Source: Pyrinomonadaceae bacterium
Lineage (GTDB): Bacteria; Acidobacteriota; Blastocatellia; Pyrinomonadales; Pyrinomonadaceae
Reading direction: 5' to 3'
NCBI GenBank assembly: GCA_035462935.1
Contig: DATHTS010000296.1
Coordinates: 1 to 30,652 of the forward strand
DNA: 30,652 nt
Part shown: positions 18,133-25,694 of the stretch, one piece after another
Layout of the letters: every line of letters begins with the position of its first letter
Position numbering within the stretch: the first letter of the stretch is position 1
Made by a program: the position numbers and the translations under genes
The notes under the pieces: model-generated
Told to the model about the DNA's origin: nothing
The model's database searches: none
The model's input: only the letters and a program-made list of their open reading frames with translations

Positions 18133-18759
18133 TTAACCCGCCTTGCGTGCAACTTCCTTGAAACTCTCGCCGCGAAAAAGCGCGCGAATGCCTTTGAATA
18201 AACGACTGATGGCGCGAAAAACCTTCGGCGCGAACCAGACGAAGAAAATTAGAAATATGATTAAAACAATTGCTATCAAAATTGGCGCGACGACGGCAAG
18301 AATTGCGCCGATAATCGCCAATACATCTTCTGCAAGAGACAAAGCCCAATTTGAAACCGGTTCGGGCGAAAGATTCGCTCCGGCGCGAAGCGCGGCTTTC
18401 GTCCCGTGCGAAGATAAAGCCAAACCGCCGCCGAGCAAAGCCGCGATAACGCCGACGCTCGCATCCATCTCGTTCGTCGCCGAATACGCGACAATCGCGC
18501 CCGCCGGAACGCGGATAAACGTATGAATCACATCCCAAACGCTGTCCACATACGGAATTTTATCGGCGAAAAATTCGATTAAATAAAGAAATCCGGCAAC
18601 GCCGATTATCCACCAGTTATCGAGAACGTCTAAACCACCCGGCAGTTTCGTCGCGCCGAATTTCTGCAAAAGTCCCAGAACCGTCACGGTCGCATAAAGA
18701 TTGATGCCGGAAGTCCAAGCCGTTCCCAGCGCCAAACTCAACGTCGAAAACCATTCCAT
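18133..18759 (-). CDS. DUF4126-family membrane protein
   Basis: AWTSGINLYAT, IEFFADKIPYVDSVWDVIHTFIRVPAGA, SPEPVSNWALSLAED. Confidence 0.88.
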   Translation of the reverse strand: MEWFSTLSLALGTAWTSGINLYATVTVLGLLQKFGATKLPGGLDVLDNWWIIGVAGFLYLIEFFADKIPYVDSVWDVIHTFIRVPAGAIVAYSATNEMDASVGVIAALLGGGLALSSHGTKAALRAGANLSPEPVSNWALSLAEDVLAIIGAILAVVAPILIAIVLIIFLIFFVWFAPKVFRAISRLFKGIRALFRGESFKEVARKAG

Positions 18760-18778
18760 CGCAAATTCTCCTTTTATT

Positions 18779-18846
18779 TAACATTTATCATTAAACATTA
18801 AACAAAAAACGAGTGATAAATGATGAATGTTCAATGATAAATGTTA
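18779..18846. repeat. Palindromic element with heptamer-periodic arms
   Basis: TAACATTTATCATTAAACATT (18779-18799) versus AATGTTCAATGATAAATGTTA (18826-18846), 1 mismatch. Units TGATAAA/TGATGAA/TGTTCAA/TGATAAA. Confidence 0.7.
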
Positions 18847-20187
18847 CTCTTCCTCTTCCTCATTTCCGTCGCGCTTAATACCGAATTTTTCCAGCCGATA
18901 CTGCAAAGTTCGGAACGTTAAACCCAATAATCTAGCCGATTTCGTAATGTTGTAATCCGTCCGTTCCATCGCCTGCATAATCAAGCTGCGCTCGACATCT
19001 TCAAAATTCACGCCTTCCGCCGGGAGTTTGAAAATATCGCCGGAAGCGGCGGTGGAAGTTTGATTGAGCATTTCGGGCGGTAAATCTTCCGGTGTGATTT
19101 TATTGTCTTCGCACAATAAGCTGGCTCGCTCGATTGCCGATTCCAATTGGCGGACGTTGCCCGGATAATTGTAGTTTTCCAAAATGCGTTTGGCTTCCGC
19201 GCTCAGTTCGATCTGACGGTCGGTGCCGCGCGTGTGTTTTTTTATAAAGTAATCAATTAGAAGTTGGGTGTCCGAGCTTCGTTCGCGCAGCGGCGGGATT
19301 TCGATGGAAAGAACGTTCAGGCGATAATATAAATCCTCGCGGAAACGCTTTTCTTCAACCATTTTCAGCAAATCACGGTTGGTTGCCGTCACGACGCGCA
19401 CATCAATATCAATTTCCTTCGTTCCGCCGACGCGCCGGATTTGTCTTTCCTGCAAAGCGCGAAGCAATTTTGCCTGTAAGGAAACATCGAGTTCACCGAT
19501 TTCATCCAAAAACAAAGTTCCGTTATCGGCAACTTCAAACAAGCCTTTCTTTTCAGCAACCGCGCCGGTAAACGAGCCTTTCTCGTGTCCGAATAGCTCG
19601 CTTTCGAGAAGATTTTCGTTAATCGCGGCGCAGTTTACGGCTTGGAAAATCTGGTTTGAACGCGGGCTGTTTTGGTGAATCGCGCGGGCAATCAATTCCT
19701 TTCCCGTTCCCGATTCGCCGCGAATCAAAACCGTCGAATTCGATTTGGCGACTTTCAAAATCAGCTTTTTCACCTTGTCCATTTCCGGTGAAGCGGAGAC
19801 GATTTCCGCGTCGAGCGTGGAAAGCTTATTTAGGGCGCGGGAAATTGTTTCAAGCAGCTTTTCGCGGTCGTAAGGCTTCTGCAAATAATCGAACGCACCG
19901 AGCCGGAGCGCGTCAACCGCCGAATCTACCGAACCGTGCGCCGTTAAAAGGATGACGATGATTGATTTGTCAAAATTCGTCAGTTCCTTCAACAAATCCA
20001 GCCCGCTCATCCCGGTCATTTTCAAATCGGTCAAGACCAGATCGAAACGCCTGTCAGCGACAAATTTCAATGCCGCTTCACCGGAACTCGCGGTCGTCAC
20101 GTCGTAGCCTTCGCCCGACAAAATCATCTCCAAAATCTCGCGCTGAGATTTCTCGTCATCTACAACTAAAATGCTTTTTCTTGCCAT
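18844..20187 (-). CDS. sigma54-dependent response regulator (NtrC family: REC-AAA+-HTH_8)
   Basis: LVVDDE, LTDLKM (phospho-Asp), GESGTGKE, ESELFGHEKGSFTGA, LFLDEIGEL, FREDLYYRLNV, YPGNVRQL, C-terminal HTH. Likely start is ATG 20187. Confidence 0.95.
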   Translation of the reverse strand: MARKSILVVDDEKSQREILEMILSGEGYDVTTASSGEAALKFVADRRFDLVLTDLKMTGMSGLDLLKELTNFDKSIIVILLTAHGSVDSAVDALRLGAFDYLQKPYDREKLLETISRALNKLSTLDAEIVSASPEMDKVKKLILKVAKSNSTVLIRGESGTGKELIARAIHQNSPRSNQIFQAVNCAAINENLLESELFGHEKGSFTGAVAEKKGLFEVADNGTLFLDEIGELDVSLQAKLLRALQERQIRRVGGTKEIDIDVRVVTATNRDLLKMVEEKRFREDLYYRLNVLSIEIPPLRERSSDTQLLIDYFIKKHTRGTDRQIELSAEAKRILENYNYPGNVRQLESAIERASLLCEDNKITPEDLPPEMLNQTSTAASGDIFKLPAEGVNFEDVERSLIMQAMERTDYNITKSARLLGLTFRTLQYRLEKFGIKRDGNEEEEE

Positions 20188-20357
20188 AAAATTTCTCTTG
20201 TATTTTAAATTCAATCGTAGTATAAACAAATTTGTAAATAAAGCCTGTCAAATCCACTGAAACTCCCGAAGAAGCTTTCTTCCCTAGCTTCAGGCTTTTC
20301 ACTCGCCTTTATTTACCTGGGAAAATTAAACATCAAATTTTTTTGGAGGTAAGATAA

Positions 20358-21363
20358 ATGAACAAAAAAAAACAACTTAGCGTTATTTGCGCTGCTCGCC
20401 ACAGGGCTTTTCAGCCTATTTACAATTAGCATTTCAGCGCAAAATAAAGTTTCAATTACAACTGAAAAATCAACCAGAACTAACTTGGGCGAAAAATTTG
20501 TAATGCCCTCAAGTATTATGGTTGGTAATGCTGTCTTTGATAACTATTTGAAAGTTGCTTCATTATCAAGAAACAAAAGGGCATCTGTTTTCAGCAAATT
20601 TTCAAATGAGGAGAAAGCAACTTTTATTAAAGTTAATTTGGCTTTGCAATTAGTCAAGCGACCAAATATAACAAAAGAGCAACAAGAATTTGTTTTAGAC
20701 GCAATCTCAAAAGTTTCTGCCGATATTTATGAGAACTCTGATGCCGAAAAAGCAAGAATGAATGAACAAAATGGTCGTGAGATTGAAAACAGAGCACTAG
20801 GACTCTTTGCTTATAAAGAATTGGGTGATTTTATTGAACCTTTGATGTCAAATAAAGATCAGGAAGCGGCGCTTGTGCAAAAATATCAAGATTTGCTTAA
20901 GAACGGAGATTCGACCAGGAGAAAAATCGCCAAAGAAATGCCCGTTAACGACAGAGTAAATATTTGGAAAGTTCAACTGGCGTATCATCTGGCAACAGGT
21001 AAGTTTTCAAAAGTTCAAAAGGCATTTATTTCAGAGTGGCTGATATCGCTCTCACCTGAAACCTTTGAATCACGCGCGAATCTTACCGCAGAAGAGGAAG
21101 CCAAAGCCCTCAAATCTTTAGAATCTAAAATATTTAGTGTCTTCACTAGAGAAGAAGGATTTGCAATTTTCATGACAATAGGTATCCAGGAAAGTATACC
21201 TGATGATCCTATTGATCCTATTGAAGGTGGTTCTTGTAATTGTCGGTGGTATTGTTGCGCATCGGGAAATTGTGCGGGCGGTTGTACCCACAAACCGAAT
21301 AGGTGCGGACCTTTTGACGATTGGGAATGTACCGGCAGGTGTGAACATCCCTCAGATCATTAG
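20358..21363 (+). CDS. Exported fulvocin C-related bacteriocin-like precursor; frameshifted in an A9 run (20364-20372)
   Basis: GGAGGT RBS then ATG 20358. Removing one A joins it to the frame of ORF 20485..21363, giving signal peptide MNKKNNLALFALLATGLFSLFTISISA-Q. Two helical repeats follow, then a C-terminal 9-Cys segment. The family assignment is from recalled motif similarity. Confidence 0.7.
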
Positions 21364-21378
21364 GAAGACTCGAAATTT

Positions 21379-21410
21379 ATGAAAGGGTGGGAAGCCCTTT
21401 CATTTTATTT
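21379..21410 (+). terminator. Intrinsic terminator-like hairpin between the precursor and TlpA genes
   Basis: ATGAAAGGG-TGGGAAG-CCCTTTCAT 9-bp stem followed by TTTATTT. Confidence 0.6.
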
Positions 21411-22271
21411 ATGAAATTCAAATCAATTTTAATTGCCTACTTTGCATTGCATATTCTGTTATTTATTAACGGAAAACTCGCGCCAAATATAAAATGGAAT
21501 TTTGTCGGCAGTTTTCTTGTCTGTTGCTTCTTTACAATTTTTTGTATTAAGAAATTTAATGACGGAAAGCCGACTTTCAGGGTTTTGTTCACCTTAATTC
21601 TGCTGAGATTATTGCTTTTAGGCGGATTGGATTTATATGTTCGTTTAGCGGAAGATTTATATGGTTCTCCTATTTTAATAATTGCTTTGCTCGGCATTAT
21701 TTCCGGCTTTTTTTATCTTAGGCTAAATAGTCCTTTTAATTTAGCCCCCTTTGTGTTCAGTTCTATATTTGTGGCTTTTATGTTTTTTCAAGGCTGGGAT
21801 TATTATCAGCATAAATTACATTACCAAAGTTTTACGGGTAGAGTAGAGGCATTTAAATTGCAACAAAGGATTGAAGGAATTGATGAAAAAGGCAATCGAA
21901 TTGATAATCAATACTTTGAAAACAAAATTTCATTACTCGATTTTTGGAATACAAAGTGTGGGATTTGTTTTGAAAAATTCCCTCAGTTACAAACCTTCTA
22001 CGATAAATATAAAGATGATAACTCGATTATTATTTATGCTATAAATAAGCCAATTGAGGAAGATACACCAAAGACTGCTTTTCAAATAATCAAAGAAAAA
22101 GGCTACACCTTTCCCGTTTTGCTGCCGATTGATCAGGAACTGCCCGAAAAATTCGGTGTCGAAGGTTACCCTACAACTTTCGTTATCAATCAAAATAGTC
22201 AAATTGTTTTTAAAGGCGATATTTCAGGCGCAGTTAAAATGGTTGAGGAATTAAAATTAAACTCTCGGTAA
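21411..22271 (+). CDS. Membrane-anchored TlpA/ResA-family thiol-disulfide oxidoreductase
   Basis: About 5 N-terminal hydrophobic segments, LLDFWNTKCGIC (CxxC at 21957-21968), GYPTTF cis-Pro loop. The 3' end overlaps the convergent kinase by 15 nt. Confidence 0.88.
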   Translation: MKFKSILIAYFALHILLFINGKLAPNIKWNFVGSFLVCCFFTIFCIKKFNDGKPTFRVLFTLILLRLLLLGGLDLYVRLAEDLYGSPILIIALLGIISGFFYLRLNSPFNLAPFVFSSIFVAFMFFQGWDYYQHKLHYQSFTGRVEAFKLQQRIEGIDEKGNRIDNQYFENKISLLDFWNTKCGICFEKFPQLQTFYDKYKDDNSIIIYAINKPIEEDTPKTAFQIIKEKGYTFPVLLPIDQELPEKFGVEGYPTTFVINQNSQIVFKGDISGAVKMVEELKLNSR

Positions 22272-23810
22272 CCTTACAGAAAATTTCGTTCCTTCATTCA
22301 ACTTTGATTCAACCTCAATCGTGCCGTTATGATCTTCAATAATTTTCCTGACAATTGCCAAACCCAAACCTGTTCCAGTTTCTTTTGTGGAAAAATACGG
22401 CTCGAAGATTTTCGACAAATTTTCTTCAGAAATCCCCGCGCCGGTATCTGCGACTTCAATTTTAACAACATTTTCATCCGGCGAAACGGTTACGCTCAAA
22501 TTCCCGCCCGTGTTTTCCATCGCCTGCACAGCGTTAATAAAAAGATTGCTGAAAACCGAACGCAAAACTTCCGGGTCGCCCAAAATATTCGGAACATTTT
22601 CGCGCTCGACGAGGCTGATTTTTACGTTCTGCTCTTCGGCTTGCGGTTCGATAATTCGTAAAGAGCTTTCGACAACTCTTCGCGCTTCAATCGGCTGCAT
22701 ATCCAATTTTAAGGGGCGCGAATAGCGCAGGAAATCGGAAACCTGGCGGTTGATTCGTTCGACTTCTTTTTTAAGCTGTTCGGTCAGTTTTTCAAACGTC
22801 GCTTGTTTTTCCGGTTCTTCCGGCGTGAATTTCGAGCGCAGATGGTCGAGCGTGAGATTAATGTAATTTAAAGGATTGCGGATTTCGTGGGCGATTGCGG
22901 ACGCGAGCCGACCGACGACCGCCGATTTTTCGGCTTCCTGCAGCTGCGCTTCGAGTCGGCGCGACTTTTCCAGTCCGGCGGTCATTTCGTTAAACTGCGA
23001 AGTCAACCTGCCCATTTCGTCGGTTCGCCCGGATTCGGGAACGCGCACGCGCAAATCGCCTTCCGCCACGCGCCGCGCCGCTGTTGAAAGATTGGCAATC
23101 GGGCGCGTGAAACGCCAGACGAGATAAAAAGTTATCAGCGTTGAAGCCAGCAAAATGGCAAGCGTGTAGATCAAAGGCTGCGCGGCGCGAAAAGCCGTCG
23201 CGCCTTTTTCCGATCTCAAAACAACCATTACATACCAGCGTCCTTCACTGGTCTGAATTGGAATGACGTGCGACTCGCCTTCGATTTCAATTGCTTCGGC
23301 GGAATTAATCTCTTGTCCTTGATTGGTTTCGGGCGGAACTATTTGCGGTTTGACGCTGCTGCTTCCCGGAAGATTCACGTTCGGAAAATGCTTCAGGTCT
23401 TCGCCAAGCCGGGTGCCTTCGGTCGGAGGCGGCAAATTTTTCAAGTCCTTCAAATTCAAATAAACCGGCTTGCCGTCTTCGCCGGTGGTCGGAAGATAAT
23501 CGGGATTGAGACTGTCCCAAATCTGCCATTCATCGTTAATAACTATAATGTCCTTGATGCGTACATTGAAATTTTCGTCAAAATACGTCTGTCCTTCGCG
23601 GTTGATGATATCCTTCATATATTCCTGCGAAGTCAAACCGCTGATGGCGAGCGCGATTCCCGACAAAATAGCTTGCTCCTGCATTTCGCGCAGATCGTTG
23701 TTTTCTTCCTGCGTTTTGTAGTTCAAATAAAACTGGATGCCGAGCGTGATAATTAAGAGAAACGCCAGAATTACCAGCAGCTTGCCGCGAAATGTGTTGA
23801 AGAAATTCAT
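22257..23810 (-). CDS. Membrane sensor histidine kinase (periplasmic sensor-HAMP-HisKA-HATPase)
   Basis: Two TMs, HAMP (RTDEMGRLTSQFNEM), H-box AIAHEIRNPL, N-box NLFINAVQAM, DTGAG, FEPYFSTKETGTGLGL. Likely start is ATG 23810. Confidence 0.95.
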   Translation of the reverse strand: MNFFNTFRGKLLVILAFLLIITLGIQFYLNYKTQEENNDLREMQEQAILSGIALAISGLTSQEYMKDIINREGQTYFDENFNVRIKDIIVINDEWQIWDSLNPDYLPTTGEDGKPVYLNLKDLKNLPPPTEGTRLGEDLKHFPNVNLPGSSSVKPQIVPPETNQGQEINSAEAIEIEGESHVIPIQTSEGRWYVMVVLRSEKGATAFRAAQPLIYTLAILLASTLITFYLVWRFTRPIANLSTAARRVAEGDLRVRVPESGRTDEMGRLTSQFNEMTAGLEKSRRLEAQLQEAEKSAVVGRLASAIAHEIRNPLNYINLTLDHLRSKFTPEEPEKQATFEKLTEQLKKEVERINRQVSDFLRYSRPLKLDMQPIEARRVVESSLRIIEPQAEEQNVKISLVERENVPNILGDPEVLRSVFSNLFINAVQAMENTGGNLSVTVSPDENVVKIEVADTGAGISEENLSKIFEPYFSTKETGTGLGLAIVRKIIEDHNGTIEVESKLNEGTKFSVRLPRV

Positions 23811-23990
23811 AAATACGGTCTTTTGATAAAATTTTTTCAAAAAAACTTGATTTACAGCCGTTTTGAATGTTATAGTCTTTTTCAGCTTAGAAGCAAATTT
23901 TGAAAGATTCGGTTTTCCCCAAATAATCGGGTTTTTTTGCTCTTCCCGAAAGCATTCCAGAAAATTCAATTTTAATGAGGTAAAAAAGCG

Positions 23991-25694
23991 ATGCTAAAAG
24001 CCCCCGTCAAGTGTCTTTTATTGACTTTATGCGTTATCGGTCTTTTATTTGCCGACGTTTCCGCTCAAGCGAAAAAGCCCATTAGTAAGAAGGCGGAAAA
24101 GACGGCGAAAGATGCCAAGAAAGAAAGCAAAACAGCCAAAGATAATAAGTCAGCCGCCAAAGATAGTAAATCCGCCAAGGATAATAAATCTGCTAAAGAC
24201 AGCAAGTCTGCCAAAGATAATAAATCTGCTAAAAACAGCAAAGAAACCGCAAAAGACAAAAACGCCAAAGACAAGAAAGATACCAAACAAAAACCTGCCA
24301 CTGCCAAACAGACCGAGCTGAACCGAAAGGAAGCCGAAAAGCGCAAAGCCGAAGAAGCCAAGCGACGCGAAGCCGAGGAAGAACGTCGGCAGGCGATTTT
24401 GGCTGAGCAGCGACGGCGTGAGCAAGCGCGCCGCGAAGCCGAAGCTAAAAGACTCGCTTTTGAACGCTCGCTTCGCACCGAAACGGTAGAAAATATTGTC
24501 GGCGATAAAACCGAGGGCGAAGATTTACAGATTCGCCGCGCCGCGGTCGAGGCTCTGGGAAACCGCGCGGGAACGGTCGTCGTGATGGAAGCGCAGACCG
24601 GAAAAGTTTTGACTGTCGTTAATCAGGATTGGGGAATCCGTAAAGGCTTTAAGCCGTGTTCGACTATTAAATTAGTAACAGGCGTTGCGGGCGTAAACGA
24701 AGAATTGATTGATGAGGAGGGAAATCTTAGAAAACAGTCTTTTAAAATGAATCTGGATGACGCGCTCGCTTATTCCAACAACAGCTATTTTCAGAAAGTC
24801 GGGACGAATCTCGGCAGCGGCAAGATGATTTCTTATGCGAAGGCTTTAGGTTTAGGCGAGCAGACGGGGATCAATGCCGAGGGTGAAACGGACGGAAAAC
24901 TGCCTTACGGTAATGAAAACGCGCGTATTTATTCGCACGGCGACGATTTTGAAGTAACTCCGCTGCAGCTTGCCGTGATGGTGTCCGCGATTACAAACGG
25001 CGGAAAATTGGTTGTGCCGCAAACGCCGCGCAATGCTTTTGAAAAAACGAATTTTCGCGGAGCGATGCGCCGTGAAGTAAATCTGCCGAAGAAAACTTTG
25101 CAAGGCGTAATGGCTGGAATGCTTGGCGCGTCGGAATACGGAACGGCGAGACGCGCCGCAAATCCGGGTTTGACCATTGCCGGGAAAACCGGCTCGTGCA
25201 TCGGGCAGGGAACCTGGGTCGGGCTTTTCGCTTCGGTCGCGCCTGCCGTCAATCCGAAATACGCGGTGGTTGTAATCACCCGCGGGCAGTCGGAGCGCGG
25301 AAAATTTGCCGCCGCCATCGCCGGAAAAATTTATCAGTCGCTGCGACCGCGTTTTGAAGAAAAGAAAGGCGAGATGATTGCCGCAGTGCCGCTTGAGATC
25401 AAGCCGAACCGCAAAATCAACGCTCAGACTTCCGTTAAACTCGATGAGGGTGAGGGCGAGGATTCCGACGACGGCGACGCTTTGAAATCAAAACCCGCCG
25501 CGAAAAAAGGCGAAACGCGCAAAACGGAACAAAATCCAACTCCGAAAACAGAGAATCGGAAAGAAAATGCTTCACCGCTTTTCTCGCCCGTGATAATTGA
25601 TTACAAAAGAGACGTGCCCGACGAGGTCGAAAGCCAAAAGGAAAAGCCCGCGGAAGTTAAACCGCAAATTACGCGCCCGCGCGTGGTGAATTAA
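23991..25694 (+). CDS. Exported penicillin-binding/transpeptidase-domain protein with low-complexity N-terminus
   Basis: Signal peptide (..VSAQ), SxxK (CSTIK), SxN (YSNN), KTG (GKTGS), VTPLQLA. Lys/Ala/Asp repeats and a charged coiled coil precede the catalytic domain. Confidence 0.88.
   Translation: MLKAPVKCLLLTLCVIGLLFADVSAQAKKPISKKAEKTAKDAKKESKTAKDNKSAAKDSKSAKDNKSAKDSKSAKDNKSAKNSKETAKDKNAKDKKDTKQKPATAKQTELNRKEAEKRKAEEAKRREAEEERRQAILAEQRRREQARREAEAKRLAFERSLRTETVENIVGDKTEGEDLQIRRAAVEALGNRAGTVVVMEAQTGKVLTVVNQDWGIRKGFKPCSTIKLVTGVAGVNEELIDEEGNLRKQSFKMNLDDALAYSNNSYFQKVGTNLGSGKMISYAKALGLGEQTGINAEGETDGKLPYGNENARIYSHGDDFEVTPLQLAVMVSAITNGGKLVVPQTPRNAFEKTNFRGAMRREVNLPKKTLQGVMAGMLGASEYGTARRAANPGLTIAGKTGSCIGQGTWVGLFASVAPAVNPKYAVVVITRGQSERGKFAAAIAGKIYQSLRPRFEEKKGEMIAAVPLEIKPNRKINAQTSVKLDEGEGEDSDDGDALKSKPAAKKGETRKTEQNPTPKTENRKENASPLFSPVIIDYKRDVPDEVESQKEKPAEVKPQITRPRVVN
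24135..24245 (+). repeat. Coding 18-bp tandem repeat (AKD[N/S]KS hexapeptide, about 6 copies)
   Basis: GCCAAAGATAATAAGTCA / GCCAAAGATAGTAAATCC / GCCAAGGATAATAAATCT / GCTAAAGACAGCAAGTCT / GCCAAAGATAATAAATCT / GCTAAAAACAGCAAAGAA, with one extra GCC after the first unit. Confidence 0.85.

Follow-up and report, generated by a model that had tools for sequence, protein, structure and literature searches.

Fulvocin C of Myxococcus fulvus, reportedly a 45-amino-acid peptide sequenced in 1981, has given its name to a protein family (NCBIfam NF033852, 'bacteriocin fulvocin C-related protein') that is now an automatic annotation label. Here we describe a member of this family in a contig of a Pyrinomonadaceae bacterium (DATHTS010000296.1, GenBank assembly GCA_035462935.1). 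The window that we analysed is this complete 30.6-kb contig (30,652 nucleotides), its source is a metagenome-assembled genome that is 86 per cent complete, and its nearest named relatives are Pyrinomonadaceae of the Acidobacteriota. Two plus-strand genes, at 20358-22271, are the subject of this analysis: gene 1 encodes a fulvocin C-related precursor and gene 2 a membrane protein with a thioredoxin domain. Together they probably make up an accessory cassette, complete in itself, for a peptide toxin of the fulvocin C family that is knotted by disulfides, exported through Sec, gated by a homopolymeric A-tract and matured by the product of gene 2.

The family is named already, and systems in which a bacteriocin has a disulfide enzyme to itself are known. 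Compared with fulvocin C and NF033852, the window shares the eight-Cys C-terminal domain and the helical module that precedes it (as judged from the family profile and not from an alignment of the peptide itself). It differs in its duplicated helical module, the ninth Cys of its tail, a five-transmembrane (5-TM) thioredoxin partner, the setting between a kinase and a regulator, and the A-tract gate. Bacteroidales have bacteroidetocin (class IIf) loci, in which a Cys-containing peptide toxin is encoded beside a 5-TM protein and, separately, a thiol oxidoreductase; toxin activity requires both of these proteins, and neither confers immunity (PMC6671954). These two accessory functions appear as one polypeptide in the window, a parallel of parts. 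Whereas bacteroidetocins have a 15-residue GG leader and an ATP-binding cassette (ABC) exporter with a C39 peptidase, the window precursor has a Sec signal and a pro-part of about 250 amino acids. No transporter was found in the cassette or in the gene tables of related loci, which sets it apart from the GG-leader/C39 type.

For the Gram-positive bacteriocins sublancin (BdbA/BdbB) and pediocin PA-1 (PedC), the toxin locus encodes its own disulfide catalyst, as proposed for the window (PMC4919988, PMC6391423, PMC4336743). These systems have other folds and partners, ABC export, separate immunity genes and two disulfides, against the four expected here. Gene 2 has its thioredoxin fold, CxxC motif and cis-Pro loop in common with ResA, CcmG (DsbE), TlpA, StoA and SdbA. 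Proteins of the ResA/CcmG/TlpA type have a single anchor and links to genes for cytochrome c or copper centres, whereas gene 2 has five TM helices and is linked to a putative toxin gene. Simple-sequence contingency loci have a 5' mononucleotide tract that varies between near-identical strains and switches the reading frame, as here (PMC2831843, PMC1891110). They have been described mostly for host-associated pathogens and for surface structures; here the organism is a soil acidobacterium, the product is a predicted secreted toxin precursor, and the variation seen is that between strains. The literature searched, mostly outside subscription journals, gave no description of a fused 5-TM thioredoxin partner, of a Sec route with a duplicated pro-domain or of a tract switch, and none of how fulvocin-type peptides are made.

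The features of the cassette are as follows, residues being those of P0001, the protein encoded by the long frame of gene 1.

20345-20360, plus strand: ribosome-binding site GGAGG (20345-20349) and start codon ATG (20358-20360) of gene 1, kept in all aligned loci.
20362-20442, plus strand: stretch encoding the signal peptide, in register with the main open reading frame (ORF).
20364-20372, plus strand: A9 homopolymer tract; A8 would link the ATG to the main frame, and the gene is OFF as written.
20539-20898, plus strand: helical repeat 1 (residues 60-179), source of the second NF033852 match stretch.
20899-21192, plus strand: helical repeat 2 (residues 180-277), seen in the profile match, the alignment, the model and the repeat comparison.
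21193-21234, plus strand: variable acidic/Pro linker (residues 278-291).
21235-21363, plus strand: Cys-rich tail and stop codon; eight invariant Cys plus CG, and one extra Cys.
21379-21410, plus strand: hairpin resembling an intrinsic terminator, with a 10-pair stem, a 5-nucleotide loop and a T-rich tail, ending at the gene 2 start codon.
21411-21824, plus strand: N-terminal five-helix membrane domain of gene 2.
21825-22271, plus strand: ResA/TlpA-like thioredoxin domain of gene 2, predicted to be periplasmic, with CGIC at 21957-21968 and the cis-Pro loop YPTT.

The long frame of gene 1 runs from 20362 to 21363 and would give a protein of 334 amino acids from the ATG at 20358 if the run of As were read as A8. 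With A9, the ATG is one base out of register and its frame ends after 23 codons. The bridged N-terminus, (MN)KKNNLALFALLATGLFSLFTISISAQ, is by its sequence a typical Sec signal, common to the 57 full-length homologs, and begins MNKKNNLALF as they do. The signal is thus encoded and conserved in the window but out of frame with the sole start codon. An earlier reading of this DNA, made from the sequence alone (the sequence-only reading), had located this signal, the linker and the nine-Cys tail correctly. It had also placed gene 1 in the fulvocin C-related family, and the profile agrees: NF033852 matches P0001 with 83 bits (E = 3.9e-23, cut-off 35), and a six-frame search of the genome gave 71.9 bits. 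The match falls in two stretches, the better of which (residues 186-328) spans the whole profile (positions 1-150). A unit of the family thus consists of a single helical module and the Cys tail; here the helical module is present twice. The two repeats, which had been proposed in the same register, are homologous according to hhalign (97.8 per cent probability, E = 1e-12, 98 columns, residues 60-179 against 180-285). The duplication is visible only at the level of profiles, as BLASTP between the two repeats did not detect it (E = 0.74).

An AlphaFold2 model of gene 1 built from 34 homologs (predicted local distance difference test score, pLDDT, 83.7; predicted template modelling score 0.81) has an all-helical body and a small, strand-containing tail. 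Neither Foldseek (none at E<=0.001) nor a profile search of PDB sequences (none below E 0.1) found fold relatives in the PDB. Close homologs number 110, with a tail of the pattern C-x-C...CG...C-x3-C. A profile of the module matched 774 clusters (50 per cent identity) at E<=1e-3 among 1.84 billion representatives. The number of helical modules in them ranges from one to three, and the tail nearly always has eight Cys, sometimes ten. The tail type is CxC...C...C...C...CG...C...C, and motifs such as CxCS..SD(W/Y)C...GCG...C also occur. Judged by these sequences, the fulvocin C-related family is large and appears to be diversifying at its putative warhead.

The tail of gene 1 has nine Cys in 36 residues (C292...C327). 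Eight of them, together with one Gly, are invariant in 34 aligned homologs (C292, C294, C298, C304, C308, C315-G316, C323, C327), and C299 is the extra one. Mean pairwise identity among these 34 full-length homologs is 59 and 55 per cent in the two repeats, 24 per cent in the linker and 26 per cent at the non-Cys positions of the tail. A conserved body with a hypervariable, Cys-framed tail is the pattern expected of a pro-domain or carrier plus a fast-evolving warhead, and the earlier suggestion of a helical pro-domain fits it. In cone-snail toxin precursors, too, the signal and pro-region are conserved, and the mature peptide is hypervariable around a Cys framework that stays fixed; the likeness to gene 1 is one of design and not of descent, both sequence and organism being unrelated. 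The suggestion that the precursor is cleaved near a GG in the linker found no support: the GG is confined to the window's own small clade, and the linker, the least conserved part, has no processing motif shared among the 34 aligned homologs.

The odd Cys count that the sequence-only reading had remarked on is real, but it is not peculiar to the tail. All 57 full-length close homologs with an eight-Cys tail have one further Cys about 15 residues after the signal peptide (C-S/T-G-E-K-F-V-M-P). This N-terminal Cys is missing from the window (20482-20484), P0004 and L058/P0005, which have instead a CC doublet in the tail (window 21256-21258), so that the total stays nine. Being a single evolutionary event, this is no more than a hint that an unpaired thiol matters.

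The tail of one relative, L006 (1800-1925), reads SCNCR-TGA-WCSS, with a stop where other homologs have Trp and an intact eight-Cys tail beyond it. The public protein P0036 ends at the same residues, and the P0047 cluster (six members, unrelated to the P0036 group) also ends ...CDCR. The TGA may be either a recurrent TGG-to-TGA nonsense change or a read-through site. A selenocysteine reading is unlikely, since the TGA stands at the Trp of the homologs and not at a Cys.

Gene 2 runs from 21411 to 22271. Its start is most likely the ATG at 21411 and not the GTG at 21387, because the hairpin fills 21379-21403 and all orthologs begin M-K/E-F-K/Q-S-I-L at the equivalent ATG. It had been described as a multi-TM CGIC protein with a thioredoxin fold, and so it proved: it matches Pfam AhpC-TSA (49.5 bits, cut-off 26) and Redoxin (47.1, cut-off 26.6), and in an AlphaFold model (pLDDT 83.7) a thioredoxin fold comes after five TM helices. 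The name 'TlpA' given to it is right as to a dedicated thioredoxin-fold partner and wrong as to TlpA proper. With the TlpA equivalog NF047696 the score is 16.5 (cut-off 230), and the protein has five TM helices in place of one anchor. The ResA model NF002854 scores 54.9 against 170, and gene 2 lies far below all NCBIfam equivalog cut-offs (ResA, StoA, DsbE, TlpA). Foldseek aligned the thioredoxin part only, with ResA, DsbE, StoA and SdbA as the best matches (E = 2e-8, target template modelling scores 0.74-0.80), and by sequence phmmer gave E of about 1e-11 for thioredoxins of this group. The motif FW.T.CG.CF.KFPQ and the cis-Pro loop GYPTT are invariant in 17-19 orthologs (CGIC and YPTT in 19), and the active site across orthologs is CG(I/V/L)C. 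By the positive-inside rule, the thioredoxin domain is predicted to face the periplasm.

The membrane domain of gene 2 belongs to no named family, occurs once in this genome and has no conserved Cys among the orthologs aligned. A redox relay of the DsbB, VKOR or CcdA type within it was considered and rejected, there being no conserved Cys, no Pfam match and no structural match; a hint of MauE in the Atlas was weak (score 0.54). The host genome has VKOR, DsbA-like and DsbD-like genes of its own, and DsbB was not found in the 86 per cent of the genome that is present. Both oxidising and reducing routes would thus exist to recycle the thioredoxin domain, and the modelled fold is compatible with either direction of reaction. 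Gene 2 orthologs carry T8-T9 and A8 runs in their Phe-/Lys-rich TM segments (L004 2104-2112, L024 7186-7202, L061 1159 and 1425).

Loci from genomes and metagenomes were compared by tblastn, and twenty-four distinct close loci had enough sequence downstream to be scored. The 5-TM thioredoxin gene lies directly downstream of the fulvocin-like gene in twenty-one of these (21/24), the exceptions being L002, L029 and L032. One of the twenty-one adjacent pairs, and one of the five in-frame A8 examples given below, come solely from L004. This locus belongs, with L006, L009 and L010, to an unpublished genome (G020); what was seen in L006 and L009 has public counterparts in the record behind L013 and in protein P0036. 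In L011 there are two cassettes in tandem (FUL-TLP-FUL-TLP), and L013 has a second, divergent copy of both genes. Among six distant family members sampled, two have a thioredoxin partner (L054, L056). One of these two precursors is a ten-Cys, two-module member and that of L056 has a single module; the L056 partner is 38 per cent identical over the TM and thioredoxin parts. The survey of homolog neighbourhoods therefore agrees with the adjacent thioredoxin-fold partner that had been predicted, at 21/24 close and 2/6 distant loci. The class of the warhead co-varies by eye with the class of the partner's membrane domain, which we did not count as evidence because the two genes are inherited together.

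Small membrane proteins of about two to four predicted hydrophobic helices, with no thioredoxin domain and no Pfam family, are found at L049 4689-5351, L052 3895-4308 and L053 5165-5557. The small membrane proteins downstream of distant members are possible immunity or export partners. Between the two genes of the cassette, a GC-rich hairpin followed by a T-rich run was present in all loci inspected (21/21), with differing stem sequences. The hairpin of the window (21379-21403) has a folding energy of -15.1 kcal/mol (z = -3.1). An Rfam search of 18500-24200 gave no match.

The main rival to maturation is immunity, in which the membrane domain and thioredoxin of gene 2 would mainly intercept incoming toxin, for example by reducing its disulfides. 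The partner gene stays intact, with none of its eleven long tracts out of frame even though five of them are in loci with the toxin OFF, which speaks for immunity; frequent return to ON, or leaky OFF alleles, would equally explain this retention. Immunity would also suit a thioredoxin domain nearest to reductases of the ResA/CcmG type, and the small polytopic membrane proteins that follow distant members, without thioredoxin, resemble classic immunity genes. The thioredoxin domain is, however, highly conserved whereas the warhead is hypervariable, and in the bacteroidetocin loci, the sole tested analogue, the 5-TM protein and the oxidoreductase are needed for activity and neither gave immunity (PMC6671954). 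We consider it unlikely that gene 2 acts mainly in immunity and favour maturation of the precursor.

The sequence-only reading had repaired gene 1 for a frameshift. The ATG is indeed one base out of frame; the cause is a length-variable A-tract. The state of the tract was read in fifteen loci checked in DNA. Five have A8 and are in frame (L019, L024, L026, L028, L004), and in ten independent assemblies the tract is out of frame: A9 in eight (the window, L012, L014, L015 and L058-L061), A10 in L020, where A9 would be in frame, and A7 in L016. As in contingency loci, the length of a 5' tract thus changes the frame between close relatives, with A7, A8, A9 and A10 alleles among the fifteen loci. 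When L058-L061 are translated, the signal peptide is intact in the shifted frame, and in the other out-of-frame loci the protein match is unbroken from query residue 1 or 2. A contig about 97 per cent identical to the window, from another soil sample, has one A fewer and is in frame (A8). The 'frameshift' is a hypermutable A-tract.

To extend the count, a gene call starting at an internal 'MP' was taken as a proxy for OFF; all eight such calls checked in DNA (8/8) were out-of-frame alleles. By this proxy twenty-five of eighty-two complete homologs are OFF, and annotators should be warned that about 30 per cent of these genes are called truncated and signal-less on account of the tract. On the tree of the eighty-two homologs, the OFF state requires 21 changes, compared with 20-24 for shuffled labels, so OFF alleles are scattered tips, and no pseudogene clade passed on by descent. 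A/T runs of eight or more in the same contigs served to control for errors of assembly. None of these broke a frame, whether in other ORFs (0/14) or in gene 2 (0/11, five of them in loci with gene 1 OFF), against ten of fifteen for the tract (Fisher, P = 2e-4 and 7e-4, respectively).

These results bear on a further alternative, that A9 arose through faulty assembly or sequencing, or marks the onset of plain decay of the gene, and has no regulatory meaning. The depth of the source sample is only about 5x, the Logan contig of the same sample is not independent, and relatives have irreversible lesions in gene 1. AAA is moreover the preferred Lys codon of the genome (25377 AAA against 8536 AAG), which yields A8 from the KKNN motif by codon usage alone, so that the tract need not be selected for mutability. 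Error would have to recur, however, in nine other independent assemblies, one labelled 49x coverage, while equal-length tracts in the same contigs are never out of frame. Decay sits poorly with the scatter of OFF states over the tree and with the fact that every out-of-frame allele checked in DNA has either a continuous gene 1 match or a complete gene call beyond the tract. We regard error or plain decay as quite improbable, and a tract that gates gene 1 as the better account. Runs of nine As provoke transcriptional slippage and ribosome sliding, and A9 alleles may be leaky.

Other lesions of gene 1 were seen in relatives. There is a 17-nucleotide tandem duplication in L003 (2215-2295, minus strand), a one-nucleotide deletion in L028 (about 1219), mid-gene changes of frame in L005 (about 1890) and L029 (6654-6686), and the TGA in L013/L006. 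The partner gene is intact in L003 and L005, L028 ends before the partner position, and L029 is without a partner. Gene 1 appears from these alleles to be silenced often and by several routes.

The cassette lies mostly between the same two genes, an NtrC-type regulator that is divergent from gene 1 and a histidine kinase that converges on gene 2. The regulator is upstream in sixteen related loci. The features on either side of the cassette in the window are these.

18844-20187, minus strand: NtrC-type sigma54-dependent response regulator, with Response_reg, Sigma54_activat and HTH_8 Pfam domains in orthologous loci; divergent from gene 1.
20312-20339, plus strand: candidate sigma70-type promoter of gene 1, with a -35-like TTTACC (20312-20317), a 16-nucleotide spacer and a -10-like CAAATT (20334-20339).
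22257-23969, minus strand: sensor histidine kinase (HAMP, HisKA, HATPase), convergent on gene 2, the ends overlapping by 15 nucleotides.

The ORF tool extends the start of the regulator to a TTG at 20229, and its orthologs begin MARKSILVVDD. An alignment of sixteen upstream regions shows two conserved boxes near the ribosome-binding site, TTTGCC/TTTACC and TAAATT. They are a candidate -35/-10 pair of the sigma70 type for gene 1, which a consensus scan did not list. A sigma54 promoter, as might be expected from the NtrC-type neighbour, was rejected: no -24/-12 match within two mismatches was found in 20188-20357, window-wide matches are at chance level, and the GGC...TTTGC boxes are wrongly spaced.

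In a genome of the same genus (G001, L043), the kinase and the regulator are adjacent with a gap of 9 nucleotides and no cassette. Away from the pair, the cassette occurs in L002, L011, L054 and L056. In all twelve loci measured, its GC content (0.34-0.43) is 8-13 points (mean about 11) below that of the flanks (0.44-0.55). The family is present in four of thirty-six genomes of the same family and in five of 300 genomes of the phylum. Low GC, patchy presence and a variable junction mark the cassette as an accessory, patchily kept island.

The junction of kinase and regulator holds an OmpH/Skp-like gene in G002 (L041 2844-3374) and a transposase of the insertion sequence (IS) type in G003 (L042 3052-3918); in L058, too, there is an OmpH gene, after the cassette. 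Four loci have a remnant of the first 46 or so codons of the regulator between gene 2 and the kinase (L012 7921-8055, L015 6914-7054, L024 7948-8061, L031 952-1035). From this remnant it follows that the cassette entered a kinase-regulator operon in an old insertion, with duplication of the 5' end of the regulator; the window has lost the remnant. PADLOC defence-system models gave no match.

Given this position, gene 1 might not be a toxin at all. Its product might serve the flanking two-component system instead, as an accessory factor or as a ligand in the periplasm or outside the cell; it would act in the manner of a peptide signal whose redox state is set by the thioredoxin. The recurrent place between the same kinase and regulator, and the conserved divergent control region that gene 1 shares with the regulator, speak for this. 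Yet the kinase-regulator pair exists unsplit in G001 and has an OmpH-like gene or an IS element at the junction in two further genomes, the cassette occurs apart from the pair at four loci, there is no sigma54 promoter upstream of gene 1, and non-Cys positions that are hypervariable are more in keeping with a weapon than with a cognate signal. A ligand is very unlikely on balance; the link of the cassette to the two-component system is positional only. Most improbable is a tail that binds metal as a copper or zinc module served by a TlpA-like reductase (TlpA serves ScoI and CoxB), for which the density of Cys and the partner's TlpA/ResA superfamily would speak, but which is at odds with the lack of conserved His, Met or Asp ligands, the variation of all non-Cys positions, a family named after a disulfide-rich bacteriocin, and a cassette that is accessory, AT-rich and often switched off.

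We therefore return to a peptide toxin matured by its neighbour and propose the following course. Gene 1 would encode a pre-pro-protein consisting of a signal peptide, a carrier or pro-domain formed by the two helical repeats, the variable linker and a warhead of about 40 residues, in which eight Cys would form four disulfides while the other residues diversify quickly. The product of gene 2 would sit in the inner membrane, and its CGxC domain would form or reshuffle the disulfides of the warhead in the periplasm while the precursor emerges from the Sec channel. Protection of the producer may be a further role of gene 2. The intergenic hairpin may be an attenuating terminator, which would hold precursor transcripts in excess of partner transcripts. 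The A-tract, four bases behind the ATG, would gate the toxin, A8 being ON and A7, A9 and A10 being OFF, or leaky by slippage. This genome, with A9, would make little or no exported precursor as assembled, its partner gene being intact. In producing cells, the helical repeats would hold the warhead until proteolytic release, after which it would act on competitors. The tract would set the fraction of cells that produce, and the switching may be adaptive.

Several points weigh against this proposal. Within the family, activity, cleavage and disulfides are reported for fulvocin C alone, and the other members are presumed toxins. With no motif in the linker and no protease or exporter in the cassette, the protein may act uncleaved. 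The thioredoxin domain resembles reductases (ResA, CcmG), and in a host with VKOR, DsbA-like and DsbD-like proteins a dedicated oxidase is not obviously needed. In four of the six distant members, the next gene downstream encodes a small protein that has no thioredoxin domain; this is a polytopic membrane protein in three cases and in the fourth a 93-amino-acid protein with predicted signal-like and C-terminal hydrophobic segments. The terminator could mean that the two genes are transcribed separately. The tract was read from contigs, that of the window at the shallow depth given above, and the one-off, irreversible lesions of gene 1 in relatives mean that some OFF states may be decay and not switching.

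If the proposal is right, the cassette offers a compact answer to how fulvocin-type peptides are made, and the family becomes a source of stable, disulfide-rich antibacterial scaffolds from soil phyla that are hard to culture. The A-tract suggests that toxin production in soil Acidobacteria is toggled by a simple-repeat mechanism known from pathogens, which would bear on the upkeep of costly weapons in natural populations. Only tentatively do we go further and suggest an unstudied, widespread class of Sec-exported bacterial 'knottin' toxins on the cone-snail plan, in which a conserved, chaperone-like pro-domain precedes a hypervariable warhead of four disulfides that a fused 5-TM/thioredoxin protein matures. 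In Pyrinomonadaceae, a reversible poly-A phase switch within the codons of the signal peptide would then hedge production at the level of the population, and the cassette would be a contingency locus that serves warfare among bacteria living free in soil.

Beyond the kinase in the window, a gene for a penicillin-binding transpeptidase (23991-25694) has a Lys-rich, near-repetitive stretch, KDNKSAKDSKSAKDNKSAK, after its signal sequence (24080-24330).

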